A stretch of DNA of 64,000 nt from Ktedonobacterales bacterium (GCA_030167145.1 CP126532.1:4675189-4739188); one strand, 5' to 3'. Counted from the first letter of the stretch, positions 16,082-60,025 are shown. Numbers and translations: made by a program. Notes: generated by a model not told the origin, from the sequence alone.

Positions 16082-16256
16082 GGTGGCCCTCCTGCTCTGC
16101 TAGCCCTTCCCGCGCAGATGTGCGGGGTGAGGTCTTCCGCGTTCCACGCCAGAGAGCGTATCATAGAACCAACGGGAAGCGTGGGATAGCCGAAGTGGCT
16201 GTGTGGCTTGTACCTGAGCATGTCCCCTGATACCATACGCTGAAACATGGCACTGC

Positions 16257-16280
16257 TTGCCATAATGTTTTGCCATAATG
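16257..16280 (+). promoter_or_regulatory. Duplicated extended -10-like element (TTGCCATAATG x2, 13-nt period)
   Basis: TGCCATAAT occurs at 16258-16266 and 16271-16279, 37-50 nt upstream of the ATG at 16316. Confidence 0.35.
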
Positions 16281-16315
16281 GTGCGGGTGTACGCGCTGGA
16301 ACAGGAAGTGGTCCG

Positions 16316-17107
16316 ATGGCGGACGAAGGTGGCGAGCGTAGCGAGCGAATAAGCGCGCCGATTCTCGAATTCGATGATACCCCACAAGCCGTCTTGGAGC
16401 CGAAGAAGCTCATCAAGCCACGCGATGTGCCAGAGCATGCCGTGGTGTGCTTCTTTCAGGAGGTGATTGCCCATCTCACCCAGGAGCACGGCGCGCATGT
16501 CATCAAGCATCTCCGCAGCGAGATCGGCGTCCATCCTGTGTATGAGATGGAACTGGACGGCAAACGGCTCGCGGTCTTCCATCCTGGCGTGGGCGCGCCG
16601 CTGGCGGCAGCGATGCTCGAAGAGGTGATCGCGCTCGGCTGCCGCACATTCATCGGCTGCGGCGGCGCGGGGGTGCTGGATAGCGAGATCGCCGTCGGCC
16701 ATGTGCTGGTGCCCGCGCGCGCCATTCGCGACGAAGGTACCTCGTACCACTATTTGCCACCAGGGCGCGAGGTCGCCGCCGACCCCGACGCCGTCTCGGC
16801 CATCGAAGCAGTGCTGAAGAGCCGCGACGTGGAATACTTCATCACCAAGACCTGGACCACCGACGCGATCTACCGCGAGACCCCTGGCAAGGTGCGCCGC
16901 CGCCGCGATGAAGGCTGCCTGGCGGTGGAGATGGAGGCCGCCGCGTTCTTCGCCGTCGCGCGGTTCCGTGGCGTGCGCTTTGCCCAACTGCTCTATGGCG
17001 GCGATGATGTGAGCGCCAGCGAATGGGACTCACGTGGTTGGAATGGGCATACTACCGCTCGCGAAAAGCTCTTCTGGCTGGCCGCCGAGGCCTGCCTCTC
17101 GTTATAG
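16316..17107 (+). CDS. Nucleoside phosphorylase family protein (PNP_UDP_1, uridine/purine nucleoside phosphorylase-like)
   Basis: GVGAPLAAAMLEE, GGAGVL and the diagnostic VEMEAAAFFAVA motif. The start at 16316 is preferred because the -10-like elements lie downstream of the alternative ATG at 16247. Confidence 0.8.
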   Translation: MADEGGERSERISAPILEFDDTPQAVLEPKKLIKPRDVPEHAVVCFFQEVIAHLTQEHGAHVIKHLRSEIGVHPVYEMELDGKRLAVFHPGVGAPLAAAMLEEVIALGCRTFIGCGGAGVLDSEIAVGHVLVPARAIRDEGTSYHYLPPGREVAADPDAVSAIEAVLKSRDVEYFITKTWTTDAIYRETPGKVRRRRDEGCLAVEMEAAAFFAVARFRGVRFAQLLYGGDDVSASEWDSRGWNGHTTAREKLFWLAAEACLSL

Positions 17108-46652: not shown

Positions 46653-47309
46653 ATGTCGGAAACCAAGGCGCAAGAGACGGACGATCAGCGACCGTCGCAG
46701 GCATATGCTGAGCCAGGAGTGGACCCTGGCGAAAGCCCGTGGCGCACGGTGGCGGGGCGCGAAGTATATCGCAACCCCTGGTTGGCAGTGACAGAATACA
46801 GCGTGATACGGCCAGATGGCCTGCCAGGCATCTATGGTGTCACGGATCCAGGGGCAAACGCCACGATTGTTGCGCTGGATGAGCGGCAGAACGTGTGCCT
46901 CGTGGGGCAGTTCGTCTACCCGGTGCGGCGCTATCTGTGGTCGCTGCCGAGCGGGCGGGTGGATGATGGCGAAGATCCACTGCTGGCGGCGCGGCGTGAA
47001 CTGGCGGAGGAAGCTGGCCTGACTGCCAGGGTGTGGACGCTGCTCGGCATGTACTATTTGAGTCCGGGCATTTCAACGCAGGCGACATTCATCTATCTTG
47101 CCCGTGACATGACGGCGGGTACGCCGCAGCCAGAGGGCACGGAACGCATCTCGCTCAAGCACATGCCCCTATCCGCAGCGGTGGAATCCTGCTTGCGAGG
47201 CGAGATTTGCGATGCGGTCAGTGTGCTGGGTCTGTGGCGCGCACAGGCGCTGCTGCGTGCGGAGGATGATGGGGGACGATCCACGCGCTCAGTCGTCGGC
47301 GACCCGTAG
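46653..47309 (+). CDS. NUDIX hydrolase (ADP-ribose pyrophosphatase-like)
   Basis: Nudix box GRVDDGEDPLLAARRELAEEAGL. Confidence 0.85.
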   Translation: MSETKAQETDDQRPSQAYAEPGVDPGESPWRTVAGREVYRNPWLAVTEYSVIRPDGLPGIYGVTDPGANATIVALDERQNVCLVGQFVYPVRRYLWSLPSGRVDDGEDPLLAARRELAEEAGLTARVWTLLGMYYLSPGISTQATFIYLARDMTAGTPQPEGTERISLKHMPLSAAVESCLRGEICDAVSVLGLWRAQALLRAEDDGGRSTRSVVGDP

Positions 47310-50300
47310 CGCCTGTCCGCCTAATCGCGTTGTGCGGGCGCGGATGAGTGTTAGCCCAGCTATGAACGCGACTACCAGCGCGACGTACAGAATCGCCAGG
47401 GTAAGCGGGTTGAACACTAACATGTATGGTGGCATCATCGGCCCAGACGAGCCAGCCGCCGCGCCCGCGAACTGGAGAAATGGCAGAGTGACGGTGGTGA
47501 GCAGATAACCGAGCGCTGTGCCTGCTAGCAGGCTGAAAGCGTAGACCGCCCACTGTTGCCAGAGGACGATGCCTGTGAGCTGGCGATCACTGCCGCCGAG
47601 CGCGTGCAGGACGGCGAACTGCGCGTAGCGTCGGCGCGCGGAGACACCGCTTTGCGCAATGCTGGCGAAGATGCCTAGAAAAGCGGCCATGGCGACACCA
47701 ATGAGCAGAAGTTTGCCCAGGCCAGCAGTTATGGGATCGTTGCTACTGGTCTGGGCCAGAGTGCTGCGGTCCACGACGGAACCCAGTAGCAGACTCGGAT
47801 CGGAGAGCGCGCGGCTGCGCGCCGCGCTGGTATCTGGTGAGCCATCTGTATGAAGCCAGTATTCCGTTGGGCCAGTGATGCCGAGATTGCCGATTTGGGG
47901 ATTATTGTACGCTGCAAACAAGTCTTGTTCATCCAGAATCACGTAGCCGCCCTCTGGTGTGTCATACATCGTGGGAAAGGCGGTGACCACTGCGCCGACG
48001 ACACAAGAGACCAGATATACCCCACCTTCCTGTGGGTTGATGGCGAAGCGATCACCAGCCTTGAGGTGCAGATCTTGAGCGAAGGTGGTGTTCACGATGG
48101 CCCATATCGGCGCAGATGTCTCGCCCGCTGCCGAACTACCCATATGTGCGCGCATTGTCGTCATCAAGTTGGGTAGTGGATCCGCCGCGAAATCCGCACG
48201 CCAGTAGGCCACCTGTGCGAAGGTTGCCGGGTCAATTCCTAGCAGGTTTACGAGGCTATTGCCAGTATCGGGCGACGTGTGGGCCTGCGTCCGGTAGATG
48301 GGCGTCTCGGCGCGCACGCCGGGCAACTTGCGGAGTGTCGCACCTAGGTTGCTGGCATAGGTGGTTTTCTGCGCCACGTCTTTCAGGGCCACTTGTGTAT
48401 CGCCGCCGACGGTGTAGGCAACACGGTCCTGGGCATTGCGCGCCAGAGACCCAGCAAAGCCAAGCGAGAAGAGACCCATACCCACACAGACAGTGAGCAG
48501 CAAGGCCAGCCGGGTGTATTGCGCTGTGGCGCGCGCCATCTGTGCGAAGGCCAGCACACCTACCGCGCCACGCCCGCGTTTAGCCATCTGCGCGCCCACC
48601 GCCGCGCCAACAGGGAACATACGCAACAATAGCAATCCCCCGGCAAAGAGCGATAGCACCGGCACAAGCGCGAAGATCGGATCCGCCGTTCCCGCGGGGT
48701 TTTGCTGGCCGAGGATGCTGCGCGCCTGGAATGTGCCCAACTGTGTCAGGTCTACGTAGCCAGCGATGCAGAGCACGGCGAGAATGACATCGAGATACAG
48801 CCGCTGCCAGAGCGGACGGCGAGTCGCGCGGGCCTGTTCACGCCTGAATGCGCCAACATCGAGCCGGGCCGCGCGGAAGGCGCCGATGACCACAGCGCCG
48901 ATTCCGCAGAGCGCGGCGATGATGGCTGCTTGTGTGGCGCTGCCGGGGGAGGCGACCAGGGAGATGTAGGAGCTATCTACGGGCGCGCCAATCCACCGTG
49001 CAAGCAGCAGCATGAGGCCAGCCGCGATAGTGGGGCCGATAATCGCAGCCAGCACGGCGAATAGGCTGCCCTGCAATGTATATGCGCTCACTACCTGAAT
49101 ACCGCTGGCGCCACGACTCGTCAGCGTGGCGATTTCGCCTTCGGAGTCGTCAATCAGCAGGCTGGCCATCGTGATCGAGAAGAGCAAAGCGACGCCAGCT
49201 AGCTCTGCTACGACCATCGTGAGAGGCAGCGCCAGCAGTGCCATCTCGCTCAGCAGCGAGGTGATGAGTTTGTCGAGATTGGTGCTGACGACGATACTCC
49301 GCAGATTGGCGGCTCCTGTTTGGGCGTCGAGCCTGGTACGCAGTTGTCCAATGTGATTGGCCACGCCATGGATATTCTGAACGGTGAGCGCGTGTGCGTT
49401 GGTAGTGTAGAGATAGTCAAGCCGCATGCCTGTAGTTGCGGCGAAGCCTGCCGATGGCGTTGCTACGCCAAGCTGGGTGAGCGCCGAGAAAAAGCCGTCA
49501 CTGGTGAAGAGCAGCGGGAAGAGTGGCGGCGGTGGTGGTGGGGAATCGAGAAGGCCCTGGTCGTGCGTATCAAAGGACTGGCCGCCCCAGAAGGCTTCGT
49601 TGGGATTCTTGGGAAACCAGACGCCGACGATGCGAACGGTGACGAACTGGCCAGTGGCGCTGAGCGGAGACAGGGTGATTGTGTCGCCGGTTTTCACACC
49701 GAGTTTTGGAGTAGCGAGCGCCTCCAAGGGCTGCCCGGCGGGCACGTCTTGCGGCAGCCTGCCCGAAAAGAAATGCATATGTGGTGCGCTGGCGGTGTAG
49801 TCCAGCACATAGGGAAGAGCGGCTGAGGTGTCCAGTCCAACCTGGTGAATCGCCTTCTGGCTGCCGTTGAGGCTCTGGAAGCGAAAATTGGCGAGCGAGG
49901 CCCAGCGCCATGTGCTGGCCGTCACGTAGCCGCCCAGCGTTGTCGTTACCTCATCGTCAACCAGACCACTTACGTTGCTCGCTTCCATTGGATAGACAAA
50001 GTTTGAGACAGCGCCTATGTCCATATTGACCTGGGTAGCGGGCGCCTGCGCCAGTGTGGCTTGAAGCTCAATGTTGGACATAAGGCTGGTGTAGAGCGGC
50101 AGCCCGCAGATTAGTATGCTTGCCAGCAGACTGCCCACGTTCACAGCGAAAAGTGAGCGCAGATTGGTGCGCGCACGCAGACCCGCCAGCCGGGCACCAG
50201 CCAGCGGCCCCACCCAGCGCATTCGCCACATGCGACGATCACGCTGTTCCTGACGTACTGTTACGCCGTCAGGTGTGGTAGGTGGTGGCTCCACTTGTGG

Positions 50301-50312
50301 AATACCGGTCAT
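47289..50312 (-). CDS. FtsX/MacB-type ABC transporter permease, duplicated (two FtsX domains), 1007 aa
   Basis: Two blocks of four TM helices preceded by large extracytoplasmic domains. FtsX-like segments (ATLTSRGASGIQV; VLHALGGSDRQL). GAGGAG SD. Confidence 0.8.
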   Translation of the reverse strand: MTGIPQVEPPPTTPDGVTVRQEQRDRRMWRMRWVGPLAGARLAGLRARTNLRSLFAVNVGSLLASILICGLPLYTSLMSNIELQATLAQAPATQVNMDIGAVSNFVYPMEASNVSGLVDDEVTTTLGGYVTASTWRWASLANFRFQSLNGSQKAIHQVGLDTSAALPYVLDYTASAPHMHFFSGRLPQDVPAGQPLEALATPKLGVKTGDTITLSPLSATGQFVTVRIVGVWFPKNPNEAFWGGQSFDTHDQGLLDSPPPPPPLFPLLFTSDGFFSALTQLGVATPSAGFAATTGMRLDYLYTTNAHALTVQNIHGVANHIGQLRTRLDAQTGAANLRSIVVSTNLDKLITSLLSEMALLALPLTMVVAELAGVALLFSITMASLLIDDSEGEIATLTSRGASGIQVVSAYTLQGSLFAVLAAIIGPTIAAGLMLLLARWIGAPVDSSYISLVASPGSATQAAIIAALCGIGAVVIGAFRAARLDVGAFRREQARATRRPLWQRLYLDVILAVLCIAGYVDLTQLGTFQARSILGQQNPAGTADPIFALVPVLSLFAGGLLLLRMFPVGAAVGAQMAKRGRGAVGVLAFAQMARATAQYTRLALLLTVCVGMGLFSLGFAGSLARNAQDRVAYTVGGDTQVALKDVAQKTTYASNLGATLRKLPGVRAETPIYRTQAHTSPDTGNSLVNLLGIDPATFAQVAYWRADFAADPLPNLMTTMRAHMGSSAAGETSAPIWAIVNTTFAQDLHLKAGDRFAINPQEGGVYLVSCVVGAVVTAFPTMYDTPEGGYVILDEQDLFAAYNNPQIGNLGITGPTEYWLHTDGSPDTSAARSRALSDPSLLLGSVVDRSTLAQTSSNDPITAGLGKLLLIGVAMAAFLGIFASIAQSGVSARRRYAQFAVLHALGGSDRQLTGIVLWQQWAVYAFSLLAGTALGYLLTTVTLPFLQFAGAAAGSSGPMMPPYMLVFNPLTLAILYVALVVAFIAGLTLIRARTTRLGGQALRVADD

Positions 50313-50370
50313 GTGTGGGTCTCCTCATGGCCTTGCGTATACGGGTATAACGTGGGAGACCAGTAAGTTA

Positions 50371-53300
50371 TTACACATGCGCGCGTACATAATCCGCTAC
50401 AACAGGAACGGGGTGAGCGGGCACTGCTGATGCCTCGTTGGGTGCTTCATCGGGGTCAGCAGGGCAAACATCGCGAAAGGCGCAGGCGGCGCAGTGGCCG
50501 CCAACCTTCGGTGCGAAGCGTTTTTGTTCGATGCCGAGCGCCGCCGCATCGAGTTTCTGCAGCCGTGACGTCCCTTTGCCTTGGACCGCTTTGAGGTATC
50601 TTTCCGCGTCTTTCTGCGCTTTCTCGGTCACATCGAGTAATCCGCCAGGTGAGCCATCTGGCGTTTCATCAGCCAGCGCATTGCCCACGTAGGCCAGTGC
50701 GATCTTGATGGGTGCCTGGGGGTGGAACTGGTGATAGGCCAGATAGTAAAGGGCAGGATCCATGTCCTTCTCATAATGATCGGGCGATGGACGGCCCGTA
50801 TGTAGCTGTACCAACAGCACCTCGGCATCGGCTGGGCGAGTTGGATCCGTGTGTACAAGCCGGTCGGCGGTGAGCTTTACCCGACACGCGGTGAGATTCG
50901 CATAGAGATCATGCGCCAGCGTCACTCGCTCACGCGTATCGGCCTCGCGCTCAGCGGTCAGCCGCTGCCACTCTTCGCGTAGGATGGCTTCCGCGTGCCG
51001 CCAATAATAGGCATCATAGGCGTGGCCAGCCGGACCATCGGTTTGCCAGCTCGCGCGCAGGTGTACCTCGGCGTCTTGCCACGTCGCCTGCGGCGCGGCT
51101 TCGCATAGAGCACGCAGATCGCGTATGCCGTGGCGGACGTAACGGTGGAAGCGGTACACGGCATTCTCAGTGGGATCAAGAAGTCCATAATCATGGGCAT
51201 ACTTGTACTGGCGCGGACAGCCAATGTATTGTTCCAGCGCGTGAAGCGAATGCGTAGGCTTGACGTCGCGCTGCGTGTTCATTTCTGGCGGTAGGGTCCC
51301 GCCGTATTCGTCGTTTGACTCGTCCTCTTCGCTATCCTCCTCATCTGATTCGTTGTCGGGCGCGGCGAGGAGGGCCATCGCATCGTCTGAGTGTGGTGAA
51401 GGCGCGTTCTGGTATGCTGGCGCTTCGTCGAGCAGGCTGAGCAGTCGTGACGGAGCGGCGGCGCTTTTGCCGTAGTGTAGCGCTCGCGTCAGTACGACCG
51501 TGTCGCGTGCGCGCGTAACGCCGACATAGAAGAGGCAGCGATCATCATCTCCGTCGGCATCCGCAGTGTCATCTACATGGAATCCCGGTGGCGCGGGATC
51601 CGGGCGGCGGTTGTTCCTCGTTGGAAACTGGCCTTGCGCAAGCCGGGGCAGATAGACCACAGGAAATTCGAGTCCTTTGCTGGCGTGGATAGTGAGAACC
51701 GCCACAGCATTTGGATCGCTCGCGGGCACGCTGATCTCTGCCTCTGCCAGCCGCAACGCGCCGAGGTAATGCAAGAAGCACGAGGCGGCGGACGCGCTCT
51801 CCGTATCCGCCGCTATGGCTGGTGTGCCAGCAGTGGTGGGCGCAACATCGGCATCGGGTGGAAGCTCCAGCGCATCGGCGGCGGGAAACGCTGAGGAAGG
51901 TACAGCCGCAGATATAGATGCCTGTGGAGCGGGAGCGCTGTGCCGAACGGCGCGAATGAGACGTGCGCGGAAATCCTCTTCGCGTGCCCATCGGGAATCA
52001 AAGCGCGCTGCCAGCCGCACCAGCTCGCCAAGCGCCGCCAGCGCGGCGCGCGCCTGGCCCGCATGCGCCAGGGCAGGACTCGGTATAAACATGCTGCTCA
52101 TATTGGTAGGCAGCGGAAGGCCATCCGCGACGCAGGCCAGCGCCCATGCGTAACCTCTGGGGCGCAGCAGGAAGCTCGCTAACTGGTCGCTCACGCGCGG
52201 CCCATAGCGCAGCTTTGTTACTACGTTGGCGAGTGTACCCAGGCCCAATCGAGTCTCGTCCCGTATTTGCGCAATGCCCGCTAGACGTGCGGGCAGCGTC
52301 GCCAGCCCTCTGGGCATGGCCTCGTGCATGGCCACAGCTTCACGAATCAGCAGCGCATGCTCGCGTGGCCCTGGCGGCACATGACCCAGGTCTGCCAGTA
52401 GTGCGTCAACCCGTAGCAAGCCACGGCAATCGGGACCAGTGGCAAGGGCCAGCAGTGCCAGTATGTCCTTCACTTCGGGTCGTGCGAAGAAGTTGCCCTG
52501 CTGGCTCACGGGTATCTCGTTCTCTGCGAGCGCCGTCGCGAGCGCCGCTACCTGCTTATTGGAACGGCAGAGCACAGCCTGGTCACGGTATGATGTGCCT
52601 GCCGCATGCCGCTGGGCAATCGTCGCGGCGAGGCCCACGCCCTCGGCTGCGGCAGTGGGATACGCTTCGCAGCGCAGAACTGCTGGGTCTGCGATTGCGC
52701 TCCGTACAGGGACGAGTGCCACCGGTTGGGCCAGCGCGCTTGGGTCGGGTGCTAGTTCGGCCATGCGCGCGGCCATGGTGGATCCCATGGCGACAATGCC
52801 GGGCACCGAGCGATAGCAATAGCGCAATGTGTGGACGTGCAACGCGGGATAGTGCTGGCGCAAGAGGCTCAGATTCGCTGGTGACGCACCCCGCCAGCGA
52901 TAGATGGACTGGTTACGGTCGCCGACAACCCATAGCCCTGCGCCGGTGTCGCCTGCGAGCAGCAGCAAAAGCTCACCGGCCGCGCGATTAGTATCCTGGA
53001 ACTCATCCACGAGAATGTTGCGGTAGCGCTGGCGCACTTCGGCCAGTACGGCAGGGCGAGCATGCAACATCTCGACCGCGCGCTGAATCAAGCCACCGAA
53101 ATCCACCAGTCCGCGACGATGCAAAGCGCGATCCCAGACGCCATAGGCTAGCGCACGTTCGTGTGCTTTGTCGATCTGGTCTTTAGAGTAGGTTCCCTCT
53201 GGAATCTCTTGCTTCGGCTTGTTCTTGCGCTTCGTTCCGGCGTTCGCGTCATGGAGTGGTTCTGGTGCGGACTGCATCGTCGCAACCAGCGCCAGGTAGC

Positions 53301-54444
53301 CATCGGGGGTGTGCAGTTCGTCACGTGCCCGTGAGAAGTCGTCCAGTAAGGTCGTGAGATGACGGGTGGGATTGCCGAGCGAGCGATAGAAGCGTAGCGG
53401 CAACTCAGCCAGCAAGTCTTCCATCAGCAGCAGCGCATCGGCCCTATCGAGGATGCGGAAGTCTGGGGTAAGCGGTGGCTCATCTGGGGCGTGGGGCGCC
53501 TGAGTCGCGAACTCGCGCAGGAGCGTTGCGGCGAGAGCGTGGATGGTCATGACAGGCATGCGTTCGCCGTGAAGGTCATGCAGCGAGAGCCGTTCGCGCA
53601 TCTCACCCGCTGCGCGATTCGAGAAGGTGAGCGCCAGGATAGATTCAGGACGCTCACCGCATTCGAGCAGCAGATATGCCGCGCGACCCACGAGCGTTTT
53701 TGTCTTACCGGTGCCCGGCCCGGCCACAATCAGCGCAGGGCCAGATGTGCGCGCGGCGGCGCGTTGCGAGTCATCCAGCGCGGAGAGCAGCTCTGACGGT
53801 TCCCCTGGCATTGGCGCGCTGGTCTCGGCTGCGGGTGGGACGGTATCGGGTTTGAGTGCGGAGAGCACCGCATCCACCAGGCGCTGGCGCATGAGCGGCG
53901 TAGAAATGCCGAAGCGCCTGGCAAGCGTCACGGCATCGGACAGTGCGGATGCGGTGAAGCAGCGCCGCACCTCAGCGCAAGGGGCGAGCAATTCCGCGGC
54001 GAATGCGTTGGCCTCTAATTCACGACGAGCGCGCGGTGTGTATTCTTCGACGCGATGGGGTTCAATCCTTAGTCCGCTGGTATCGGGCGTCTCATTCACT
54101 TCGTCTTCTTCGCAGGCTTCCTCGCGCGCCGCCAGTTCCCCGCGATGCAATACGTAGTGCCCTAACTCGTGCGCAATGGCGAAAAGTTCTTGTTCTTGTG
54201 AAAGTCCCGCGCGCAGATGTATGACACCTTCTTGGGGGGTATCCCAGTCGAAGAGCTGAAGTCGCGCATATGCGCCGCCAAGGACACCATTAGTGGTGGC
54301 CTGCGGCGAAATCTCGATGCAACGCATCTCGCAGAGCAAGCGCAACACCACGCGGGCGTGGGGCACGTCATCCCAAGTACGCATCGCCAGTGCGTGCGAC
54401 CGCAACGCGCGCGCGGCTTGCGCGATGACTTCCATACGCTCCAT
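50371..54444 (-). CDS. Fusion protein: ImmA/IrrE-type (M78) metallopeptidase + UvrD/Rep SF1 helicase + Cas4/AddB-like Fe-S (PD-(D/E)XK-derived) domain
   Basis: HELGH (54157-54171) plus E..AN.FA.ELL.P. Helicase motifs AGPGTGKT, LTFSNRAAGEM, VDEFQDTN, VVGDRNQSIYRWRGA and YVGVTRARD. The C-terminal domain has CPRQYKY ... ADRLV ... LLVQLHTGR ... ALYYLAY ... CAACAFRDVC. Confidence 0.85.
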   Translation of the reverse strand: MERMEVIAQAARALRSHALAMRTWDDVPHARVVLRLLCEMRCIEISPQATTNGVLGGAYARLQLFDWDTPQEGVIHLRAGLSQEQELFAIAHELGHYVLHRGELAAREEACEEDEVNETPDTSGLRIEPHRVEEYTPRARRELEANAFAAELLAPCAEVRRCFTASALSDAVTLARRFGISTPLMRQRLVDAVLSALKPDTVPPAAETSAPMPGEPSELLSALDDSQRAAARTSGPALIVAGPGTGKTKTLVGRAAYLLLECGERPESILALTFSNRAAGEMRERLSLHDLHGERMPVMTIHALAATLLREFATQAPHAPDEPPLTPDFRILDRADALLLMEDLLAELPLRFYRSLGNPTRHLTTLLDDFSRARDELHTPDGYLALVATMQSAPEPLHDANAGTKRKNKPKQEIPEGTYSKDQIDKAHERALAYGVWDRALHRRGLVDFGGLIQRAVEMLHARPAVLAEVRQRYRNILVDEFQDTNRAAGELLLLLAGDTGAGLWVVGDRNQSIYRWRGASPANLSLLRQHYPALHVHTLRYCYRSVPGIVAMGSTMAARMAELAPDPSALAQPVALVPVRSAIADPAVLRCEAYPTAAAEGVGLAATIAQRHAAGTSYRDQAVLCRSNKQVAALATALAENEIPVSQQGNFFARPEVKDILALLALATGPDCRGLLRVDALLADLGHVPPGPREHALLIREAVAMHEAMPRGLATLPARLAGIAQIRDETRLGLGTLANVVTKLRYGPRVSDQLASFLLRPRGYAWALACVADGLPLPTNMSSMFIPSPALAHAGQARAALAALGELVRLAARFDSRWAREEDFRARLIRAVRHSAPAPQASISAAVPSSAFPAADALELPPDADVAPTTAGTPAIAADTESASAASCFLHYLGALRLAEAEISVPASDPNAVAVLTIHASKGLEFPVVYLPRLAQGQFPTRNNRRPDPAPPGFHVDDTADADGDDDRCLFYVGVTRARDTVVLTRALHYGKSAAAPSRLLSLLDEAPAYQNAPSPHSDDAMALLAAPDNESDEEDSEEDESNDEYGGTLPPEMNTQRDVKPTHSLHALEQYIGCPRQYKYAHDYGLLDPTENAVYRFHRYVRHGIRDLRALCEAAPQATWQDAEVHLRASWQTDGPAGHAYDAYYWRHAEAILREEWQRLTAEREADTRERVTLAHDLYANLTACRVKLTADRLVHTDPTRPADAEVLLVQLHTGRPSPDHYEKDMDPALYYLAYHQFHPQAPIKIALAYVGNALADETPDGSPGGLLDVTEKAQKDAERYLKAVQGKGTSRLQKLDAAALGIEQKRFAPKVGGHCAACAFRDVCPADPDEAPNEASAVPAHPVPVVADYVRAHV

Positions 54445-55103
54445 TAGCTCGCTGCCTCGCGAGCGATGATCTCAGCCCACTCGCGTTTCTGGTCGGGCGC
54501 GAGCATGCTGCTCTGGATAGCGCTGGCGAACGACTCCTGGCCGGGTTGCGGAGGTGAGTCGGCGTAGAAGAAGGCGTTCGCCTGAACGGGCTTGCCCAGA
54601 TAGGCGCTGACGGCGTCTTCTGGCGCGTGCAGCGTCTCAGCCAGCCGTTTGACAAGTTCGCGGGGGATATCGCCAGGGGTGATCGCGCGTAAGTCGAGCT
54701 TGCCCACAATCGCCATGTTCAGGCCCACTGCCGCGCCGAGTTTCGACATAGTGAGTCCAACCGCTCTCGCGCTCCGGGCCAGACTGAGGATGCGTGTTTC
54801 CGCTGCTGGCGCAGATGCACTCTGGCGTGCGTTTGCCAGCACGCGCTGGGCAGCGGGCGAAAGTGCGGATGCGCGAGTCTCCTCAACAGGCGGGAGGTGG
54901 GCCGTCACCGCATGGAAGAACAGCGCGAACTCTATCAATTCGGCTGCATAGTCGGGATAGCGCCGTACATAGTCCTCGACATTGGGAGACTTGCCAGCAT
55001 GGTATTCGTTTGTATATTGGGCGGTGATGCTATCCAATGTGTCTTCGCGTAGCGCCTGCTCACGTTGCTGATTCGCATTCAGGTTTCGATTTCGCTTAGC
55101 CAT
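54444..55103 (-). CDS. XRE-like helix-turn-helix protein (219 aa), candidate substrate/partner of the fused ImmA protease
   Basis: HTH-like segment ARAVGLTMSKLGAAVGLNMAIVGKLD. The ATG at 55103 is preceded by GAGGAGG and overlaps the upstream stop. Its own stop overlaps the downstream ATG (TAATG). Confidence 0.6.
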   Translation of the reverse strand: MAKRNRNLNANQQREQALREDTLDSITAQYTNEYHAGKSPNVEDYVRRYPDYAAELIEFALFFHAVTAHLPPVEETRASALSPAAQRVLANARQSASAPAAETRILSLARSARAVGLTMSKLGAAVGLNMAIVGKLDLRAITPGDIPRELVKRLAETLHAPEDAVSAYLGKPVQANAFFYADSPPQPGQESFASAIQSSMLAPDQKREWAEIIAREAAS

Positions 55104-55890
55104 TGTTGCCCTCCTCGTCGCGGTAGCGCGCACGTAGGAATGCCATGATTCGTTTCAGACGATTGCGTACTGTTCTGCTATCCACTCCCAACAGCCGCGC
55201 GGCGTCATCTTGCGTCAAGTCGTCCCAGAACAGGAGTGCCAGAAGTTTTTGCTGCTCGGACGTCAATTCGGCAAGCAGCGCATCGAGATCTGCCGCTATC
55301 TCCACATTGGTATACGCATCGTCTGTGCTTGTGTCTGCTGGATCAGTGCCGGGCATATCATCATCGCCAGATTTCCGAGGACTAGAAAGACTCTGTGTCA
55401 TGTCCTTGGGGATGCGTTCAGGCATATCTACCCCTGGCCGAACCCACTGCCCTTGTTTCTGCATGTAATCCCATGCCACATGTTGCTCTAGGCGTCGCAG
55501 GCTAGTGTGGAAGTGTACCTCGAAGAACTGGCGCAGAGGATTGCGCAGCGTCTCGAGCAGAGCAGTGTAGCCTTCTTGCTCCAGTTCTTCCGCCAACTCA
55601 GGAATCTGTCCGCTTCGAGAGCGATGGGCAATGTCACGCGACCACCTTGACATCTCTGTGGTCAAGGCTGAGAAGATGACCGTCACAATGCGGTTGGCTT
55701 CGGCCTCGGCCTGCGCCGCCAGCCGCTCGCGGAAGCATCTGACCAGTATCTCCACTGGCAGGAGGTCGCCTTCCTTACGCTCGATGGCGAGCCAGTAGTC
55801 CGCGCTGCCAGGGGGAGGCAACTGCTGGAAGAGAGCGTCCAGTTGAACTCGCCTGGCTGCGTGGGCATCTTCGTGGTGATCATCTCCCAT
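55096..55890 (-). CDS. Sigma-70 family protein (clear region 4; atypical, long N-terminal part)
   Basis: C-terminal LTSEQQKLLALLFWDDLTQDDAARLLGVDSRTVRNRLKRIMAFLR is a canonical sigma region-4 HTH. The ATG at 55890 is preceded by AAGGAG. The track ORF extension to 56025 is not supported. Confidence 0.65.
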   Translation of the reverse strand: MGDDHHEDAHAARRVQLDALFQQLPPPGSADYWLAIERKEGDLLPVEILVRCFRERLAAQAEAEANRIVTVIFSALTTEMSRWSRDIAHRSRSGQIPELAEELEQEGYTALLETLRNPLRQFFEVHFHTSLRRLEQHVAWDYMQKQGQWVRPGVDMPERIPKDMTQSLSSPRKSGDDDMPGTDPADTSTDDAYTNVEIAADLDALLAELTSEQQKLLALLFWDDLTQDDAARLLGVDSRTVRNRLKRIMAFLRARYRDEEGNNG

Positions 55891-56227
55891 GCCGAACTCC
55901 TTCTTGCCAGTGGTGATAGGTCTGGCGACACGCGGAGTTCCCGCGACCACGCGCGGAAAGCGGCATGCCGTCGTCACCAGTATAGGAGTCGGATAGGGAA
56001 CGGTCAACACTAGCTCTTGAAACATCGCAAACCTCTCAATTGAGGATATCAGGGACAGCAGCGGTGCGCTGCGCTCATCACTGCCTTCGAAATACGGCGG
56101 CGCGGGTCAAAGTCGGAAAGGGCCGCCCGGCATTCTTACCGTTGACACTGCCGGTACCATAGCTGAGCCAGAGGTGTCGGCCCTGAATTCATGCATGTTA
56201 AGCGCATTGGAGTAGGAGTGATTACGC

Positions 56228-57094
56228 ATGCTTCGCATCTCACGACATCTGTTGTTTCTCGCCATCTTTACCACGAGCATGCTGTTAATGGCATGCGGCA
56301 GCGCAACGGGCAGAGCATCCAGTACCCCGACATCAGCGGCGACGGCGACGGCGACGGCCACGACGCCCAGCGGCTGCGCTGCCGCTTCTGGTTTCGCTTC
56401 CGCAGGCGTGCCCAACCTGGGCGCACACTTCGGCGATGTGAGTTTTCCTTCGGGGGCGATCAGCTATAATACGACGACGCCAGAAACCAATGGCTTCCAA
56501 TTCCGGCTGGTCCACACTTGTGTCGTGGGGTTGACGCCTGCCGCACTACGGAATTTTTACAACACGCACAGCACTAGCCAGGGGTGGAGTTTGACCGACA
56601 CTGTGCCAGTGAATGGCGACCTCAGCACGGCCTGCCCCACTCCTGCCTATTGTTGGATAAAGAATGATGGGGTGATCCGGTTCCTGAATCTTGAGGATGT
56701 CGCATCGGCTGGTAGCGTGACCACATACACCCTACGGCTGATTATCGAGCCGCTAGCCAGCGGTGGTGCCCTGCTCAATCCCGGTGATACCTACGACTTC
56801 GATCCAACTGGCCCAGGCAGCGGCGCCAACGATCTGACCTGGACAGGCAGCCAGTTGACACTTGCCAGCGGCGTGACCTATCACGCGGTGGGTAGTGGCG
56901 CGTTCAATACGGTGGGTTATGCAGATGTCGCGGGTTACACCTACGGCGTGGGGCCAGTGCCAGGGAGCGCGCTGGCAGTGGGGGCGATCTTTGCGGTGCA
57001 GACCGGAGATCATCACTTTGTGAAGGTGCGAGTGGTGAATCATGCAGGCTCGCAACTGAACGTCGAAGCAGTGACCTATCCCTATACCTTTTAG
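56228..57094 (+). CDS. Secreted lipoprotein, function unknown
   Basis: Signal peptide with lipobox LLMAC-G, a Thr/Ala-rich linker, then a beta-rich domain. GGAGTAGGAG SD. Confidence 0.6.
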   Translation: MLRISRHLLFLAIFTTSMLLMACGSATGRASSTPTSAATATATATTPSGCAAASGFASAGVPNLGAHFGDVSFPSGAISYNTTTPETNGFQFRLVHTCVVGLTPAALRNFYNTHSTSQGWSLTDTVPVNGDLSTACPTPAYCWIKNDGVIRFLNLEDVASAGSVTTYTLRLIIEPLASGGALLNPGDTYDFDPTGPGSGANDLTWTGSQLTLASGVTYHAVGSGAFNTVGYADVAGYTYGVGPVPGSALAVGAIFAVQTGDHHFVKVRVVNHAGSQLNVEAVTYPYTF

Positions 57095-57262
57095 CCGCGT
57101 CAGGTGGCCGTGCTTGCCGCCCACTTGGGGCACGCATTGACGTTCCTTGAACGCCCCTCGTACCATGTGACAGAGTACACGCATCGCCAGATCTAGGGGG
57201 ATCTGGTGGCAGGTACTCTGGACCCGCGCAACAGCCGCGTGGAGCGGAGCGATGGAGGCGGC

Positions 57263-58123
57263 ATGAGCGATAGCGATAGTGTACGCCCGGCCATACACAC
57301 CGTCGGCATTATCTATCGTGAGCGATCAGCGGAGGCGAGTGCGCTGGCCCACACGCTGGCGGCGCGGATGTCTGCGGGTGGGCGGCGTGCGTGGCTCGCC
57401 GAACGCGAGGATGAAGCGGAGATCGTGGACCAGTTGGTGGGTACAGAGTTGGCGCTCGTACTTGGCGGCGATGGCACGATTTTGTCCGTTGCCCGGCTCT
57501 GCGCGCCGCTCCAGATTCCTATCCTGGGTGTCAACTTTGGGCGCGTCGGCTTCCTGACGGAACTGGAACCGTTGGAGGTCGAGGAAAAGCTGCCGCTCTA
57601 TCTCAACGGCGATTACTGGGTGGACGAGCGCACGATGCTTCAGGCGGAGGTTGGGCACGATGGCGCGACAGAACACCTGATTGCGCTCAACGATGTGGTG
57701 CTGGCGCGTGGCGCTGAGCCACGAGTCATTCGCGTGAAGGTCTGGATTGACGGACATCTCTACAACACCACCGTCGCCGATGGCGTGATTGTCTCCACCG
57801 CGACCGGCTCCACAGCCTACAATCTGGCGGCAGGCGGCCCGATTCTCCATCCGCAGGTGCGCAGCAGCGTCCTCACACCACTCGCGCCGCATTTGGCCGC
57901 TGATCGCTCGCTGATTCTGGAGCCAAGCGCCGTTATCACGCTCGAAGTGGAGGAGCGCTCCGGAGCGGCGGTGCTCTCCGCCGATGGACAGATCAACCGC
58001 GACTTGGCGGTGGGCAGCCGTGTGGTTATTCGCGGCAACGCGCACATGACGCGCTTTTTGCGCCGCCGCCCGCCGACCTACTTCTATAGGATTCTGACGG
58101 CGAAACTGCGAGATAATCTCTAG
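57263..58123 (+). CDS. nadK: NAD kinase
   Basis: GGDGTILSVARL, NFGRVGFLTE, NDVV and STATGSTAYNLAAGGPIL. The ATG follows GGAGG. Confidence 0.9.
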   Translation: MSDSDSVRPAIHTVGIIYRERSAEASALAHTLAARMSAGGRRAWLAEREDEAEIVDQLVGTELALVLGGDGTILSVARLCAPLQIPILGVNFGRVGFLTELEPLEVEEKLPLYLNGDYWVDERTMLQAEVGHDGATEHLIALNDVVLARGAEPRVIRVKVWIDGHLYNTTVADGVIVSTATGSTAYNLAAGGPILHPQVRSSVLTPLAPHLAADRSLILEPSAVITLEVEERSGAAVLSADGQINRDLAVGSRVVIRGNAHMTRFLRRRPPTYFYRILTAKLRDNL

Positions 58124-58171
58124 TGGTCACTCTGGTTGTAGCGATGAGCGCTCAATGGGATATGGACAGCG

Positions 58172-60025
58172 ATGTTGCTCGAACTCACCATCAATAATTT
58201 CGCCATCATTGATAGCCTGCGTCTCACCTTCGATCCGCATTTCAATGTCTTCACTGGCGAGACGGGCGCTGGCAAATCAATACTCATAGATGCTATCTCG
58301 GCGTTGGTGGGCGAGCGCACTGGCAGCGACGTGGTGCGGGCGGGCAGTGACCGTGCGCTGATCGAAGGTGTCTTCGATCTCGCTATGTTGGCGTCGGCTG
58401 GCAACGGCGCATCCGACCGTACCCAGAAGCGGCAGGCGCGAGATGAGGAGGAACGGGAAGAGACGGAGACACTTGCCGATGTGCTTGCAGACCTTGGTAT
58501 CGCGCCAGAAGAGGATGGCGTGTTGATTCTCTCGCGCGAAATTCTGGCGAGCGGACGCGGCATTGCGCGGGTGAATCGGCGCGCTGTGCCAGTGTCGAGC
58601 TTGCAGCGCGTGGGACGCTTCCTGGTGGATATGCATGGCCAGAGCGCGCATCTGGAACTGCTACGGCCTGAGCAGCACGTCCACTATCTGGACCGCTATG
58701 CCGGAACAGTGGAGCTTCAGCGCCAGGTAGCCGAGCAGGTACTCCAGTTGCGGGCGACGCGCCGTGAGCTAGAACGTCTGCGTCAGGACGAACGCGAAAT
58801 CGAGCGACAAATCGAGTTGCTGCGCTACCAGGTAGACGAGATTGAGGCGGCGCGGTTGCGTCCTGGTGAACTGGAAGACCTGGAGACCGAACGCAGGCGA
58901 TTAGCCAACGCCGAACGTCTGGGAGAACTTTCCGCGCTAGCGCATGCCGCGCTTGCCGGCGATGGCGAGAGCGATACGCCGGGCGCGGTGGATCTGCTGG
59001 CGGGTGCGGCGCGCACATTGGGCGACCTGCTACGGCTAGATGATTCGCTGCACGAACACATGGAACCTTTAGAGCAGGCGTTGTATTTGGCGCAGGAAGT
59101 GGGCACGGCGCTGCGCGGTTATCAGGACGAACTGGCGGCGGACCCGGCGCGACAGGCAGAGGTGGAGGAGCGGCTCGACCTGCTGGCGAAGCTCCGTCGC
59201 AAGTATGGCGCAACGATTGAGGCGATGCTGGACTATGCGACACGCGCCGCGACTGAGCTGGATGAATTGACCCACCGTGAGGAGCGCGCGGAGGCGCTGG
59301 CGGAGGTGGAGCATGATCTGAAGGTACAGATCGGCGCACTGGCAGGGCGACTCTCGCGGCGGCGGAGCGAGGCGGCGGGGCAGTTAGCGGCAGCGATGGA
59401 GCGCGAGCTAGACGATCTGAATATGCGCCGGGCACGGGTGCTGGTACGAATTACGCAAGCGCCTGACCCGGAGGGTGTGCCCGCCGAGCTAGAGGGCGCG
59501 AGCGCGCCAGTGTTCTATTCGTTCACGGTAACGGGCATTGACCGCGTGGAGTTTCTCTTTGCACCGAACCCTGGTGAGCCACCAAAGCCACTGGCGCGCA
59601 TCGCCTCTGGCGGCGAGACATCACGCCTGATGCTGGCGCTGAAAACGATTCTGGCGGCTGCCGATATTGTACCAGTGCTGATCTTCGATGAGATTGATAG
59701 CGGCATAAGCGGACGCAGCGGCCAGGTAGTAGCCGAGAAGCTGTGGCAACTTGGCCGTACACATCAAGTGCTCTGCGTAACCCATCTGGCGCAGATCGCG
59801 GCGCTGGGCGACCGCCACTATCGCGTAGCCAAAGCGAGCGATGACAATCGCACTTCAACGCGCGTGTCAACGCTGGCGGATGGCGAGCGAGTGGCCGAGG
59901 TGAGCCAGATGCTCGGCGGGGCGAACACGGCGGCGGCGCGCGCTAACGCGACGGAACTGCTTGCACGCGGCGCAGCGTGGAAGGCGGCCAGCGCGAGCAA
60001 CGCGGCGCCCGCGCAGACTGCCTGA
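58172..60025 (+). CDS. recN: DNA repair protein RecN
   Basis: MLLELTINNFAIIDSLRLTFDPHFNVFTGETGAGKSILIDAI, a long coiled coil, a C-terminal SGGETSRLMLALK signature, and LIFDEIDSGISG. Confidence 0.95.
   Translation: MLLELTINNFAIIDSLRLTFDPHFNVFTGETGAGKSILIDAISALVGERTGSDVVRAGSDRALIEGVFDLAMLASAGNGASDRTQKRQARDEEEREETETLADVLADLGIAPEEDGVLILSREILASGRGIARVNRRAVPVSSLQRVGRFLVDMHGQSAHLELLRPEQHVHYLDRYAGTVELQRQVAEQVLQLRATRRELERLRQDEREIERQIELLRYQVDEIEAARLRPGELEDLETERRRLANAERLGELSALAHAALAGDGESDTPGAVDLLAGAARTLGDLLRLDDSLHEHMEPLEQALYLAQEVGTALRGYQDELAADPARQAEVEERLDLLAKLRRKYGATIEAMLDYATRAATELDELTHREERAEALAEVEHDLKVQIGALAGRLSRRRSEAAGQLAAAMERELDDLNMRRARVLVRITQAPDPEGVPAELEGASAPVFYSFTVTGIDRVEFLFAPNPGEPPKPLARIASGGETSRLMLALKTILAAADIVPVLIFDEIDSGISGRSGQVVAEKLWQLGRTHQVLCVTHLAQIAALGDRHYRVAKASDDNRTSTRVSTLADGERVAEVSQMLGGANTAAARANATELLARGAAWKAASASNAAPAQTA

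Follow-up and report, generated by a model that had tools for sequence, protein, structure and literature searches.

In Deinococcus, the M78-family protease IrrE (PprI) cleaves the XRE-type regulator DdrO after DNA damage, upon which a regulon is induced, and ImmA and ImmR of ICEBs1 act in the same manner. A related pair is CapP and CapH: CapP is a protease activated by single-stranded DNA (ssDNA) that cleaves the helix-turn-helix (HTH) repressor CapH, and a cysteine-switch residue caps its catalytic zinc until ssDNA activates the enzyme (Lau et al., 2022, 10.1101/2022.04.27.489752). The same study mentions 24 cyclic oligonucleotide-based antiphage signalling system (CBASS) loci with capH and capP that also encode a neighbouring sigma-70-family protein (10.1101/2022.04.27.489752). 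Operons of bacterial ubiquitination-like (Bub) systems are preceded by CapW, by CapH with CapP, or by CapK with CapS (10.1101/2024.11.21.623953; PMC13373217); the biological role of these systems is still unsettled, and the regulation of immune operons is an active question. Here we analyse a three-gene operon at positions 50371 to 55890 of a 64,000-nucleotide stretch of DNA from Ktedonobacterales bacterium (GCA_030167145.1, CP126532.1:4675189-4739188; the whole stretch is hereafter called the window). On the minus strand it encodes, in this order, a divergent sigma factor of the extracytoplasmic function (ECF) type, a small protein (B) and a large fusion protein (C) that joins an M78 peptidase to a UvrD-type helicase and an iron-sulfur (Fe-S) nuclease fold. 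Homologous loci are cited by L numbers.

We read this trio as a transcription-control module in which the helicase senses DNA, the fused protease cleaves B and the sigma factor is freed, and we put the probability of this reading at roughly 0.55. It sets out from domain content, co-conservation, cargo linkage and promoter motifs, all of which are observed. Such a module would work like CapH/CapP, with the GAF sensor given up and a helicase/pseudo-nuclease sensor and a private sigma factor added. The likeness lies in an M78 HExxH peptidase with an aligned switch cysteine, in an adjacent small protein predicted to adopt a CapH-like XRE fold, in the position of most trio homologues directly upstream of a defence-type operon (Bub operons included), and in the DNA-derived signal to be expected. 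The trio differs in that the HTH-linker and GAF sensor of CapP are replaced in C by about 1,150 amino acids (aa) of UvrD helicase and predictedly dead Fe-S nuclease fold, that the module obligatorily includes a third gene, for a dedicated sigma factor, that B carries an extra N-terminal module and another C-terminus, and that no defence operon follows the trio of the window. In being chromosomal and standing alone, the Ktedonobacterales module resembles DdrO/IrrE; however, neither DdrO/IrrE nor ImmR/ImmA has a helicase fusion or a sigma factor, IrrE has a GAF-like domain, and no operator of the radiation/desiccation response motif (RDRM) type was identified at the trio. An initial annotation, made from the sequence of the window alone, had stated that no characterised system shows this three-gene architecture. 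We likewise found no description of the trio in the literature searched, but the theme is precedented by CapH/CapP and the 24 sigma-adjacent capH/capP loci.

All three open reading frames (ORFs) are present as the initial annotation had drawn them, and the translational coupling that it proposed was confirmed at both junctions. The sigma stop codon TAA (55098-55096) lies within the overlap with the B start codon ATG (55103-55101; ATGGCTAA), with a GAGGAGG Shine-Dalgarno (SD) sequence (55116-55110) 6 nt 5' of this ATG, and the B stop codon TAA (54446-54444) shares a base with the C start codon ATG (54444-54442; TAATG). Overlaps of 8, 4 or 1 nt, or abutting genes, recur in the homologous loci L001, L002, L029, L085 and L114-L117. 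Adjacent and co-oriented sigma, B and fusion genes were found in other Ktedonobacterales (L001, L002, L089, L087/L088, L091-L102), in Chloroflexia (L004), Roseiflexus (L011) and a further metagenome-assembled genome (MAG) of Chloroflexi (L006), in Acidobacteriota (L005), Verrucomicrobiota (L017) and on a cyanobacterial plasmid (Leptolyngbya), as well as in Lichenicoccus, Sphingomonas, Collimonas, Methylococcaceae, Pseudomonas, Aeromonas, Kluyvera and E. coli CP61_Sichuan. The co-conservation foreseen for related genomes thus reaches across phyla, with seven named groups (Chloroflexota, Acidobacteriota, Verrucomicrobiota, Cyanobacteriota, Alpha-, Beta- and Gammaproteobacteria), and extends to at least 72 plasmids. 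More than 100 database proteins share the full M78-UvrD-PDDEXK architecture, so that the fusion is not an assembly artefact, which had been named as a possible pitfall. B is encoded on 72 plasmid records and the full-length fusion on 87, with homologues flanked by insertion sequence (IS) elements, while the full-length fusion occurs in 0 of 50,697 phage records. As to the searches themselves, the scan of genome contigs used generic UvrD motifs, and most of its 80 loci were ordinary PcrA/UvrD genes that were set aside, and the locus search with the Ktedonobacterales B alignment yielded 24 metagenome contigs, most of them short.

Outside Ktedonobacterales and Chloroflexia, the gene directly after the fusion gene opens a ubiquitin-like conjugation operon. 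Type II Bub cargo (multiubiquitin, ThiF E1 and DUF6527) was found in L085, L086 and L114-L117 and, judged by gene sizes, also in L012, L013 and L029; type I cargo (Multi_ubiq+Prok-E2_E, JAB+ThiF and DUF6527) in L010; and other JAB/ThiF or DUF7665/ThiF sets in L009, L014, L015 and L018. At least one Bub locus listed as regulator-less carries the trio: the Leptolyngbya boryana operon is given without a regulator in the supplementary table of 10.1101/2024.11.21.623953, and in L115 the trio stands directly upstream of it. CapK with CapS and CapW/BrxR occupy this very niche directly upstream of Bub operons and are likewise thought to be induced by DNA damage (PMC13373217), but they are unrelated proteins (kinase/STAS and WYL, respectively) that act through repression, with neither sigma factor nor helicase. 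The flanking genes in Ktedonobacterales and Chloroflexia are ordinary and differ from locus to locus; no Bub gene was found in the 64-kb window by tblastn, and the trio has no defence cargo, prophage or island surroundings there. A setting in a defence island or prophage, for which the initial annotation had asked relatives to be searched, was therefore found in part, as Bub operons adjoining the trio in other lineages, and not in the window or in any phage record. The link to immunity through adjoining mobile ubiquitin-like operons fits a signalling role, and the designation of the trio as a signalling or immunity module survives in this sense, the trio looking like a regulator of other genes rather than an immunity effector itself. 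The copy in the window is a cargo-less, putatively autoregulated, chromosomal version.

In L117 (Acinetobacter johnsonii pXBB1-8), an inserted ISAba31 transposase gene (12021-12767) separates the fusion gene from the Bub cargo, and the promoter motif described below (12821) stayed with the cargo after the insertion.

The sigma-70 region 4 assignment of the first gene was borne out by Pfam (Sigma70_r4_2, E 6e-12) and by NCBIfam, where TIGR02937 (ECF-type sigma-70) matched aa 129-299 of the long ORF with 49.8 bits (cut-off 42.9); in the L004 orthologue, Sigma70_r2 was recognised as well (26.9 bits, cut-off 24). The protein comprises a sigma2-like region, a sigma4 region and a conserved N-terminal extension, sigma2 and sigma4 being its only sigma regions, as in ECF (group 4) factors. 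Translation most likely starts at the ATG at 55890 behind an AAGGAG SD, in agreement with the end coordinate initially implied; a longer ORF reaching 56025 encloses a sigma70-like promoter. Homologues of the sigma gene stand 5' of B in nearly all trio loci. A single-sequence AlphaFold2 model of the sigma factor had a predicted local distance difference test (pLDDT) value of 49.7 and was not usable. Public names of the gene conflict at L114 (7210-8004), L115 (7201-7980), L117 (7207-7983) and L085 (7663-8439), running from 'DNA-binding response regulator' and 'transcriptional regulator' to 'sigma-70 family RNA polymerase sigma factor' and 'hypothetical protein'; at the same loci B is always named 'hypothetical' and the fusion 'UvrD-helicase domain-containing protein'.

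Conserved and co-varying ECF-type motifs at fixed places in the loci support the sigma-like reading of this protein, which we regard as a putative promoter-specific factor. A cognate promoter with -35 and -10 elements, often autoregulatory, is typical of ECF factors and is indicated here by comparative evidence. At eleven loci from four phyla, the motif TT(A/T)CCG(G/A)-N16/17-(C/G)GATT(A/G) lies between the fusion stop codon and the cargo. The form TT[AC]CCG-N16/17-[CG]GATT has 28 matches in 2.56 Mb of fetched DNA, and 23 of the 28 fall at two fixed places, namely before the cargo and inside the sigma gene, about 215 nt (212-218) 5' of the B start. Codon choice at the internal site is fixed (TAC/TTC CGG/CGA ... 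xCG ATT) in AT-rich and GC-rich hosts alike. The internal site moreover co-varies with the cargo -35 element, both being TTACCGG, both TTACCGA or both TTTCCGG; in the last variant (L010, L017) the encoded Tyr becomes Phe, and CGATT persists even in sequences that encode Thr or Ser in place of Ala. Co-variation and retention of CGATT argue for selection on the DNA and not on the protein alone. These patterns imply that the internal site may drive B and C in a sigma-dependent manner and so close a negative feedback loop. In L014 and L015, whose sigma factors form a divergent subgroup, the motif differs accordingly.

In Ktedonobacterales, a motif of the form [CT]TTCCG-N17-NGTAT is located 5' of the sigma gene (L001, L089, L091/L096, L094, L097, L098, L087/L088), 90-250 nt upstream in every locus with enough sequence and always distal to a housekeeping-type promoter TTGACG-N17-TATACT, the latter being conserved in L001, L002, L089, L091, L094 and L097. 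A conserved motif is also found upstream of the sigma gene in L006. Unrelated loci totalling about 1.1 Mb contain no copy of the NGTAT form, which we consider related to the TT(A/T)CCGG-N16/17-CGATT before the cargo in other phyla. Two strict matches occur in the window against 0.3 expected (56119-56092 and 16134-16161). The second lies 85-155 nt upstream of a PNP_UDP_1 nucleoside-phosphorylase-family gene (16247-17107), which is a candidate regulon member as a weak lead only. A one-mismatch copy after the C stop codon (50338-50366) occupies the place of the cargo promoter of other taxa and ranks 43 of 128,000 with the Ktedonobacterales position weight matrix (PWM), which is not significant window-wide; by this PWM the sites at 16134 and 50366 score 11.5 and 7.2 against a mean shuffled maximum of 14.4. 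The proteobacterial cargo-promoter PWM gave no significant site in the window either (best 14.7, mean shuffle maximum 15.2).

Both kinds of promoter are followed by inverted repeats. The sigma leader that follows the sigma70-like promoter (55891-55978, minus strand) is strongly conserved in Ktedonobacterales (L089, L091, L097, L001) and ends in a hairpin beside or overlapping the SD, with GCCAG-N11-CTGGC before AAGGAG in the window and GACTGAC...GGAGTCAGGC in others; it may serve translational control. A second hairpin stands 20-50 nt after the cargo promoter in L029, L012, L013, L085, L086, L114, L116 and L018. Its arms vary and yet stay complementary (GCCAGAC-ACC-GTCTGGC versus GCCGGAC-ACC-GTCCGGC) and are preceded by a conserved TAGAG; it has the look of a conserved stem-loop in the 5' untranslated region of the Bub RNA. 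No Rfam family was found in 50000-56500.

Protein B had no match in Pfam, NCBIfam or PADLOC, and every named member of its family is called hypothetical. A profile search of 1.84 billion cluster representatives returned 1,872 members at E<=1e-3 and 1,222 at E<=1e-10, or about 1,200 clusters at 50% identity. In the AlphaFold2 model (42-sequence alignment, mean pLDDT 85.9), a long, acidic N-terminal helical module (aa 3-67; YVRRYPDYAAEL) is followed by a disordered linker, by a domain of five helices (about aa 105-170) and by two C-terminal helices, which are joined via a less confident segment with a conserved F/Y-x-A-D...P motif (tail FFYAD..PP...SF). Foldseek searches of the PDB returned XRE/Cro-type domains only, namely the 434 and P22 repressors, C.AhdI, SinR, HigA, the N-terminal domain of CapH (7t5u) and DdrO, with probabilities of 0.97-1.0 for the best HTH-domain matches and 0.35-0.54 for DdrO. 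The XRE-like HTH that the initial annotation had seen in this protein is hence absent at the profile level and present in the predicted structure, so that an XRE/CapH-like fold of the central domain has structural support but none from profiles. The N-terminal motif of B (YL..YP.YA.EL) also heads Ser/Thr kinases in L110 (6895-8142) and L108 (3833-5062). As the kinase-like gene of L110 lies directly 3' of a planctomycete-type ECF sigma gene, the motif suggests a module that partners ECF sigma factors, perhaps generally.

We propose, by analogy, that B is the substrate of the protease and acts as an anti-sigma factor or co-repressor. The arrangement resembles ECF sigma/anti-sigma pairs such as RpoE-RseA in its two-domain group-4-like sigma factor with a co-translated partner, in its putatively autoregulated promoter with a CG-rich -10 element and in a release that would proceed by proteolysis; it differs in that B is cytoplasmic, bears an HTH and lacks a recognisable anti-sigma domain, and in that the protease is a helicase-fused M78 enzyme instead of a site-1/site-2 or Clp protease. 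Neither a helicase nor an M78 context is mentioned in the main text of the ECF classification (PMC7826278). The most serious rival to an anti-sigma role, though we hold it to be distinctly less probable, is that B is a DNA-binding repressor of the CapH/DdrO kind, seated on operators near the sigma-dependent promoters and removed by cleavage, with the sigma factor merely a dedicated activator that is never sequestered. The predicted XRE/CapH-like fold of the central domain speaks for such a role, as do the mildly basic charge of the HTH domain (+1 to +6 in most members), the inverted repeats after the promoters in the cargo and sigma leaders, and the fact that CapH, DdrO and ImmR act in this way (10.1101/2022.04.27.489752). 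Yet the leader repeats differ by locus while remaining complementary, which resembles an RNA hairpin more than a conserved operator, B as a whole is acidic, its N-terminal module strongly so (net charge -2 to -9), its translation is tightly coupled to that of the sigma factor, and its N-terminal motif is common to an ECF-adjacent kinase.

Protein C begins with the M78 peptidase (Peptidase_M78, E 6e-15, Pfam cut-off 22 bits; PADLOC capP, E 2e-15), followed by the helicase (UvrD-helicase, aa 225-533, E 1e-57; UvrD_C, E 3e-29, to aa 986), and both initial domain assignments were upheld. In an alignment of 13 full-length homologues, H92, E93, H96 and E142, which make up an HExxH zinc peptidase with its third-ligand Glu, are invariant together with C111, as are all SF1A motifs (Walker A GTGKT, DEFQD, QSIY, YRS, SKGLEF and TRAR) and the four cysteines C1076, C1318, C1321 and C1327 that frame the nuclease fold. 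Among solved structures the N-terminal domain is best matched by CapP (7t5t), in which the cysteine corresponding to the switch residue Cys113 of CapP aligns with Cys111; C thus keeps an internal cysteine-switch residue, a feature of a subset of CapP proteins. No GAF domain was matched by Pfam in C, whose M78 domain leads into UvrD and PDDEXK_1 instead. For the C-terminal part, initially described as a Cas4/AddB-like cysteine-cluster domain, the fold and the four cysteines were recovered, while catalytic motif III proved to be lost. In a profile comparison the domain matches the nuclease domain of AdnA from mycobacteria (E 6e-8), but motif III, VVDLKTGK in AdnA, reads llvrlrtGrp in the family consensus and LLVQLHTGRP in the window, the Asp and Lys being replaced by Q/R...H/R/L in all family members, whereas the motif II Asp (D1194) and the Fe-S cysteines are retained. 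Since motif III has lost its Asp and Lys family-wide and the four cysteines are kept, the nuclease fold is probably catalytically dead and a sensor, DNA-binding or structural domain.

We judge it unlikely that C is mainly a repair or end-processing helicase of the AdnAB/AddAB type, which the sigma factor and B would regulate within a housekeeping DNA-damage regulon of Ktedonobacterales and whose peptidase would have some other substrate. Its closest solved helicase relatives are indeed UvrD, PcrA, Rep and AdnB of AdnAB, and with AdnAB/AddAB it has in common a UvrD-like motor that precedes a nuclease fold of the RecB family bearing a four-Cys Fe-S cluster; the trio is chromosomal, outside any defence island and 2 kb from recN, it is apparently inherited vertically at about 50% identity across Ktedonobacterales MAGs, and a paralogous fusion (L008) occurs with neither sigma nor B. 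Against this, C is a single polypeptide with an added N-terminal peptidase and no partner subunit, the catalytic Asp and Lys of the nuclease are gone family-wide, and the scores of C lie far below the equivalog cut-offs (236 versus 911 for PcrA, 217 versus 1144 for UvrD, 228 versus 951 for Rep) and likewise far below the curated NCBIfam cut-offs for AddA and RecB. The same trio is also a mobile cassette before Bub operons on plasmids, which is hard to square with core repair. On these scores we rejected C as an orthologue of UvrD, PcrA, Rep, AddA or RecB, and an AddAB, AdnAB or RecB assignment was rejected for the missing active motif III (D/E)xK and the low scores, despite the four-Cys Fe-S feature. 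Still more improbable is that the trio is itself an antiphage effector of Gabija or abortive-infection type whose helicase and nuclease attack foreign DNA: PADLOC reports GajB and DRT-helicase matches and homologues are plasmid-borne and IS-flanked, but these matches reflect generic UvrD similarity with no GajA-like gene among the window neighbours (FtsX-like and 288-aa ORFs scanned with Pfam, outer ORFs read by translation), so that Gabija was rejected, the nuclease is predicted to be dead, the full fusion is absent from the phage records, and a conserved sigma promoter before separate cargo points to regulation. Both rivals are weakened by the predicted loss of nuclease activity and by the cargo-promoter evidence.

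Two further groups of proteins are related to C. A paralogous fusion clade of Ktedonobacterales (L008, 4942-8562; like P0107 and P0120) comprises a protein of 1206 aa with about 33% identity, which has no sigma or B gene upstream and whose neighbours, CoaX-like and membrane proteins, are encoded on the other strand. UvrD plus Fe-S nuclease-fold proteins that lack M78 occur in Chloroflexota, Limnocylindria and Acidobacteriota (L019, L020, L039, L047, L058, L060, L069), their hidden Markov model match beginning at about position 200, and no B or sigma homologue was detected beside them.

For the transcription-control module, we envisage the following course. A basal promoter of sigma-A type would yield all three proteins, and the dedicated divergent ECF-type sigma factor would read its own class of promoters, TT[T/A]CCG(G) followed after 16-17 nt by CGATT or CGTAT. 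B, held in a fixed ratio to the sigma factor via translational coupling, would keep the system off, most likely by binding the sigma factor with its acidic N-terminal module and possibly also DNA with its XRE-like domain. C would be sensor and executioner in one: its UvrD-type motor, together with the predictedly dead Fe-S nuclease fold, would bind to DNA in an abnormal state (for example double-strand ends, ssDNA arising from damage, or DNA entering the cell), and this engagement would relieve the cysteine switch of the fused CapP-like peptidase, so that B is cut. The freed sigma factor would then drive the downstream Bub/E1 operon in most lineages, plus B and C from the promoter inside the sigma gene. 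In Ktedonobacterales, including the window, the clear target would be the trio's own operon, any others being unlinked or unassigned. For the contact between B and the sigma factor, the cleavage of B and the DNA signal, we infer from the precedents of CapH/CapP, DdrO/IrrE and ECF sigma/anti-sigma pairs; the regulon of this genome is likewise a matter of inference.

Several observations weigh against this reading. No anti-sigma domain (ASD/ZAS) was recognised in B by Pfam or NCBIfam, and no Cys/His zinc motif is present; no profile-level match supports the HTH of B, and the Foldseek E-values are weak (all E > 0.02), because the matched HTH domain is short. Owing to the strong divergence of the sigma family, many of its members go unrecognised by Pfam. 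Only two co-variation events underlie the argument from paired promoters, and they are phylogenetically linked. No target beyond the trio operon itself is statistically supported in the window. The existence of a paralogous clade without sigma and B, finally, suggests that the fusion is able to work in another context.

A more far-reaching form of the same proposal, to which we give somewhat less than even odds, holds that the helicase and the Fe-S pseudo-nuclease form an ATP-driven sensor of DNA ends or ssDNA that licenses, in cis, a cysteine-switch protease against an HTH anti-sigma factor and so frees a private sigma factor. The module would then be widespread and an overlooked major controller of Bub/E1 operons, borne on plasmids in Acinetobacter, Klebsiella and rhizobia and probably on the chromosome in Salmonella; in Ktedonobacteria and Chloroflexia it would have turned into a chromosomal system that answers to damaged or foreign DNA independently of LexA and commands a regulon of its own. 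If so, it would add a positive, sigma-factor-based control logic to the regulation of immune operons, and a motor-protein sensor could tell DNA ends or unwinding substrates from bulk ssDNA. For Chloroflexota, the trio is a candidate regulator of the response to DNA damage or foreign DNA, a kind of control that is poorly known in this phylum. The family is large and present on plasmids of clinical Acinetobacter and Klebsiella, and C, if the prediction holds, neatly illustrates how a nuclease fold can persist as an Fe-S sensor domain devoid of catalysis. As the predicted promoter sequence is defined, ready-made reporters are at hand, and the signal that activates Bub systems becomes directly testable.

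Table 1. Features of the trio locus in the window and motif sites inside the sigma gene of homologous loci.
Feature	Locus	Positions	Strand	Remark
Sigma gene	window	55096..55890	-	divergent ECF-type sigma factor, 264 aa
Protein B gene	window	54444..55103	-	219 aa; no profile match
Protein C gene	window	50371..54444	-	1357 aa; M78 peptidase + SF1A (superfamily 1A) UvrD-type helicase + Fe-S nuclease fold
CapP/IrrE-like M78 Zn-peptidase domain	window	53878..54255	-	aa 64-189; Pfam PF06114, E 6e-15
HELGH motif	window	54157-54171	-	peptidase
Cys111 codon	window	54112-54114	-	peptidase
UvrD/PcrA/Rep-type helicase core	window	51487..53772	-	aa 225-986; long insertion between motifs IV and V
AdnA/AddB/Cas4-like PD-(D/E)XK fold	window	50461..51249	-	Pfam PDDEXK_1, aa 1066-1328, E 5e-11
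ECF-type promoter-like motif TTTCCG-N17-CGTAT	window	56092..56119	-	upstream of sigma gene; proposed autoregulatory
Sigma70-like promoter TTGACC-N17-TATACT	window	55979..56007	-	10/12 matches; proposed basal operon expression
Weak candidate promoter TTACTG-N17-CGTATA	window	50338..50366	-	one-mismatch copy directly after C stop, 26 nt before FtsX-like gene
Second strict motif copy CTTCCG-N17-CGTAT	window	16134-16161	+	divergent intergenic region, upstream of PNP_UDP_1 gene
FtsX-like permease gene	window	47289..50312	-	1007 aa, downstream of C; Pfam FtsX, E 3e-8
Internal sigma-gene site	L012	5213		
Internal sigma-gene site	L013	5099		
Internal sigma-gene site	L016	5103		
Internal sigma-gene site	L029	5040		
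Internal sigma-gene site	L085	8223		
Internal sigma-gene site	L086	7986		
Internal sigma-gene site	L114	7788		
Internal sigma-gene site	L115	7764		
Internal sigma-gene site	L116	7791		
Internal sigma-gene site	L117	7767		
Internal sigma-gene site	L010			TTTCCGG variant
Internal sigma-gene site	L017			TTTCCGG variant
Internal sigma-gene site	L112			TTTCCGG variant

The surroundings of the trio in the window are those of an ordinary chromosomal region, and no compositional anomaly was seen around it. The FtsX-like permease gene downstream of C is a possible but unproven target of the sigma factor; this neighbour is not kept beside the trio elsewhere, other Ktedonobacterales loci having unrelated neighbours. 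On the other side, divergent NAD kinase and RecN genes (57206-60025, read from translations) lie 1.3-2.3 kb upstream of the trio, and a 288-aa secreted protein of no assigned family is encoded at 56228-57094, between the trio and the NAD kinase gene. No sigma motif was found in front of the 288-aa, NAD kinase or RecN genes. A NUDIX-like ORF, also read from its translation, is among the outer neighbours. The order of the 288-aa and NAD kinase genes is kept in the close relative L087 (520-1374), where NAD kinase is a precomputed Pfam match, and the 288-aa gene is also present in L088.

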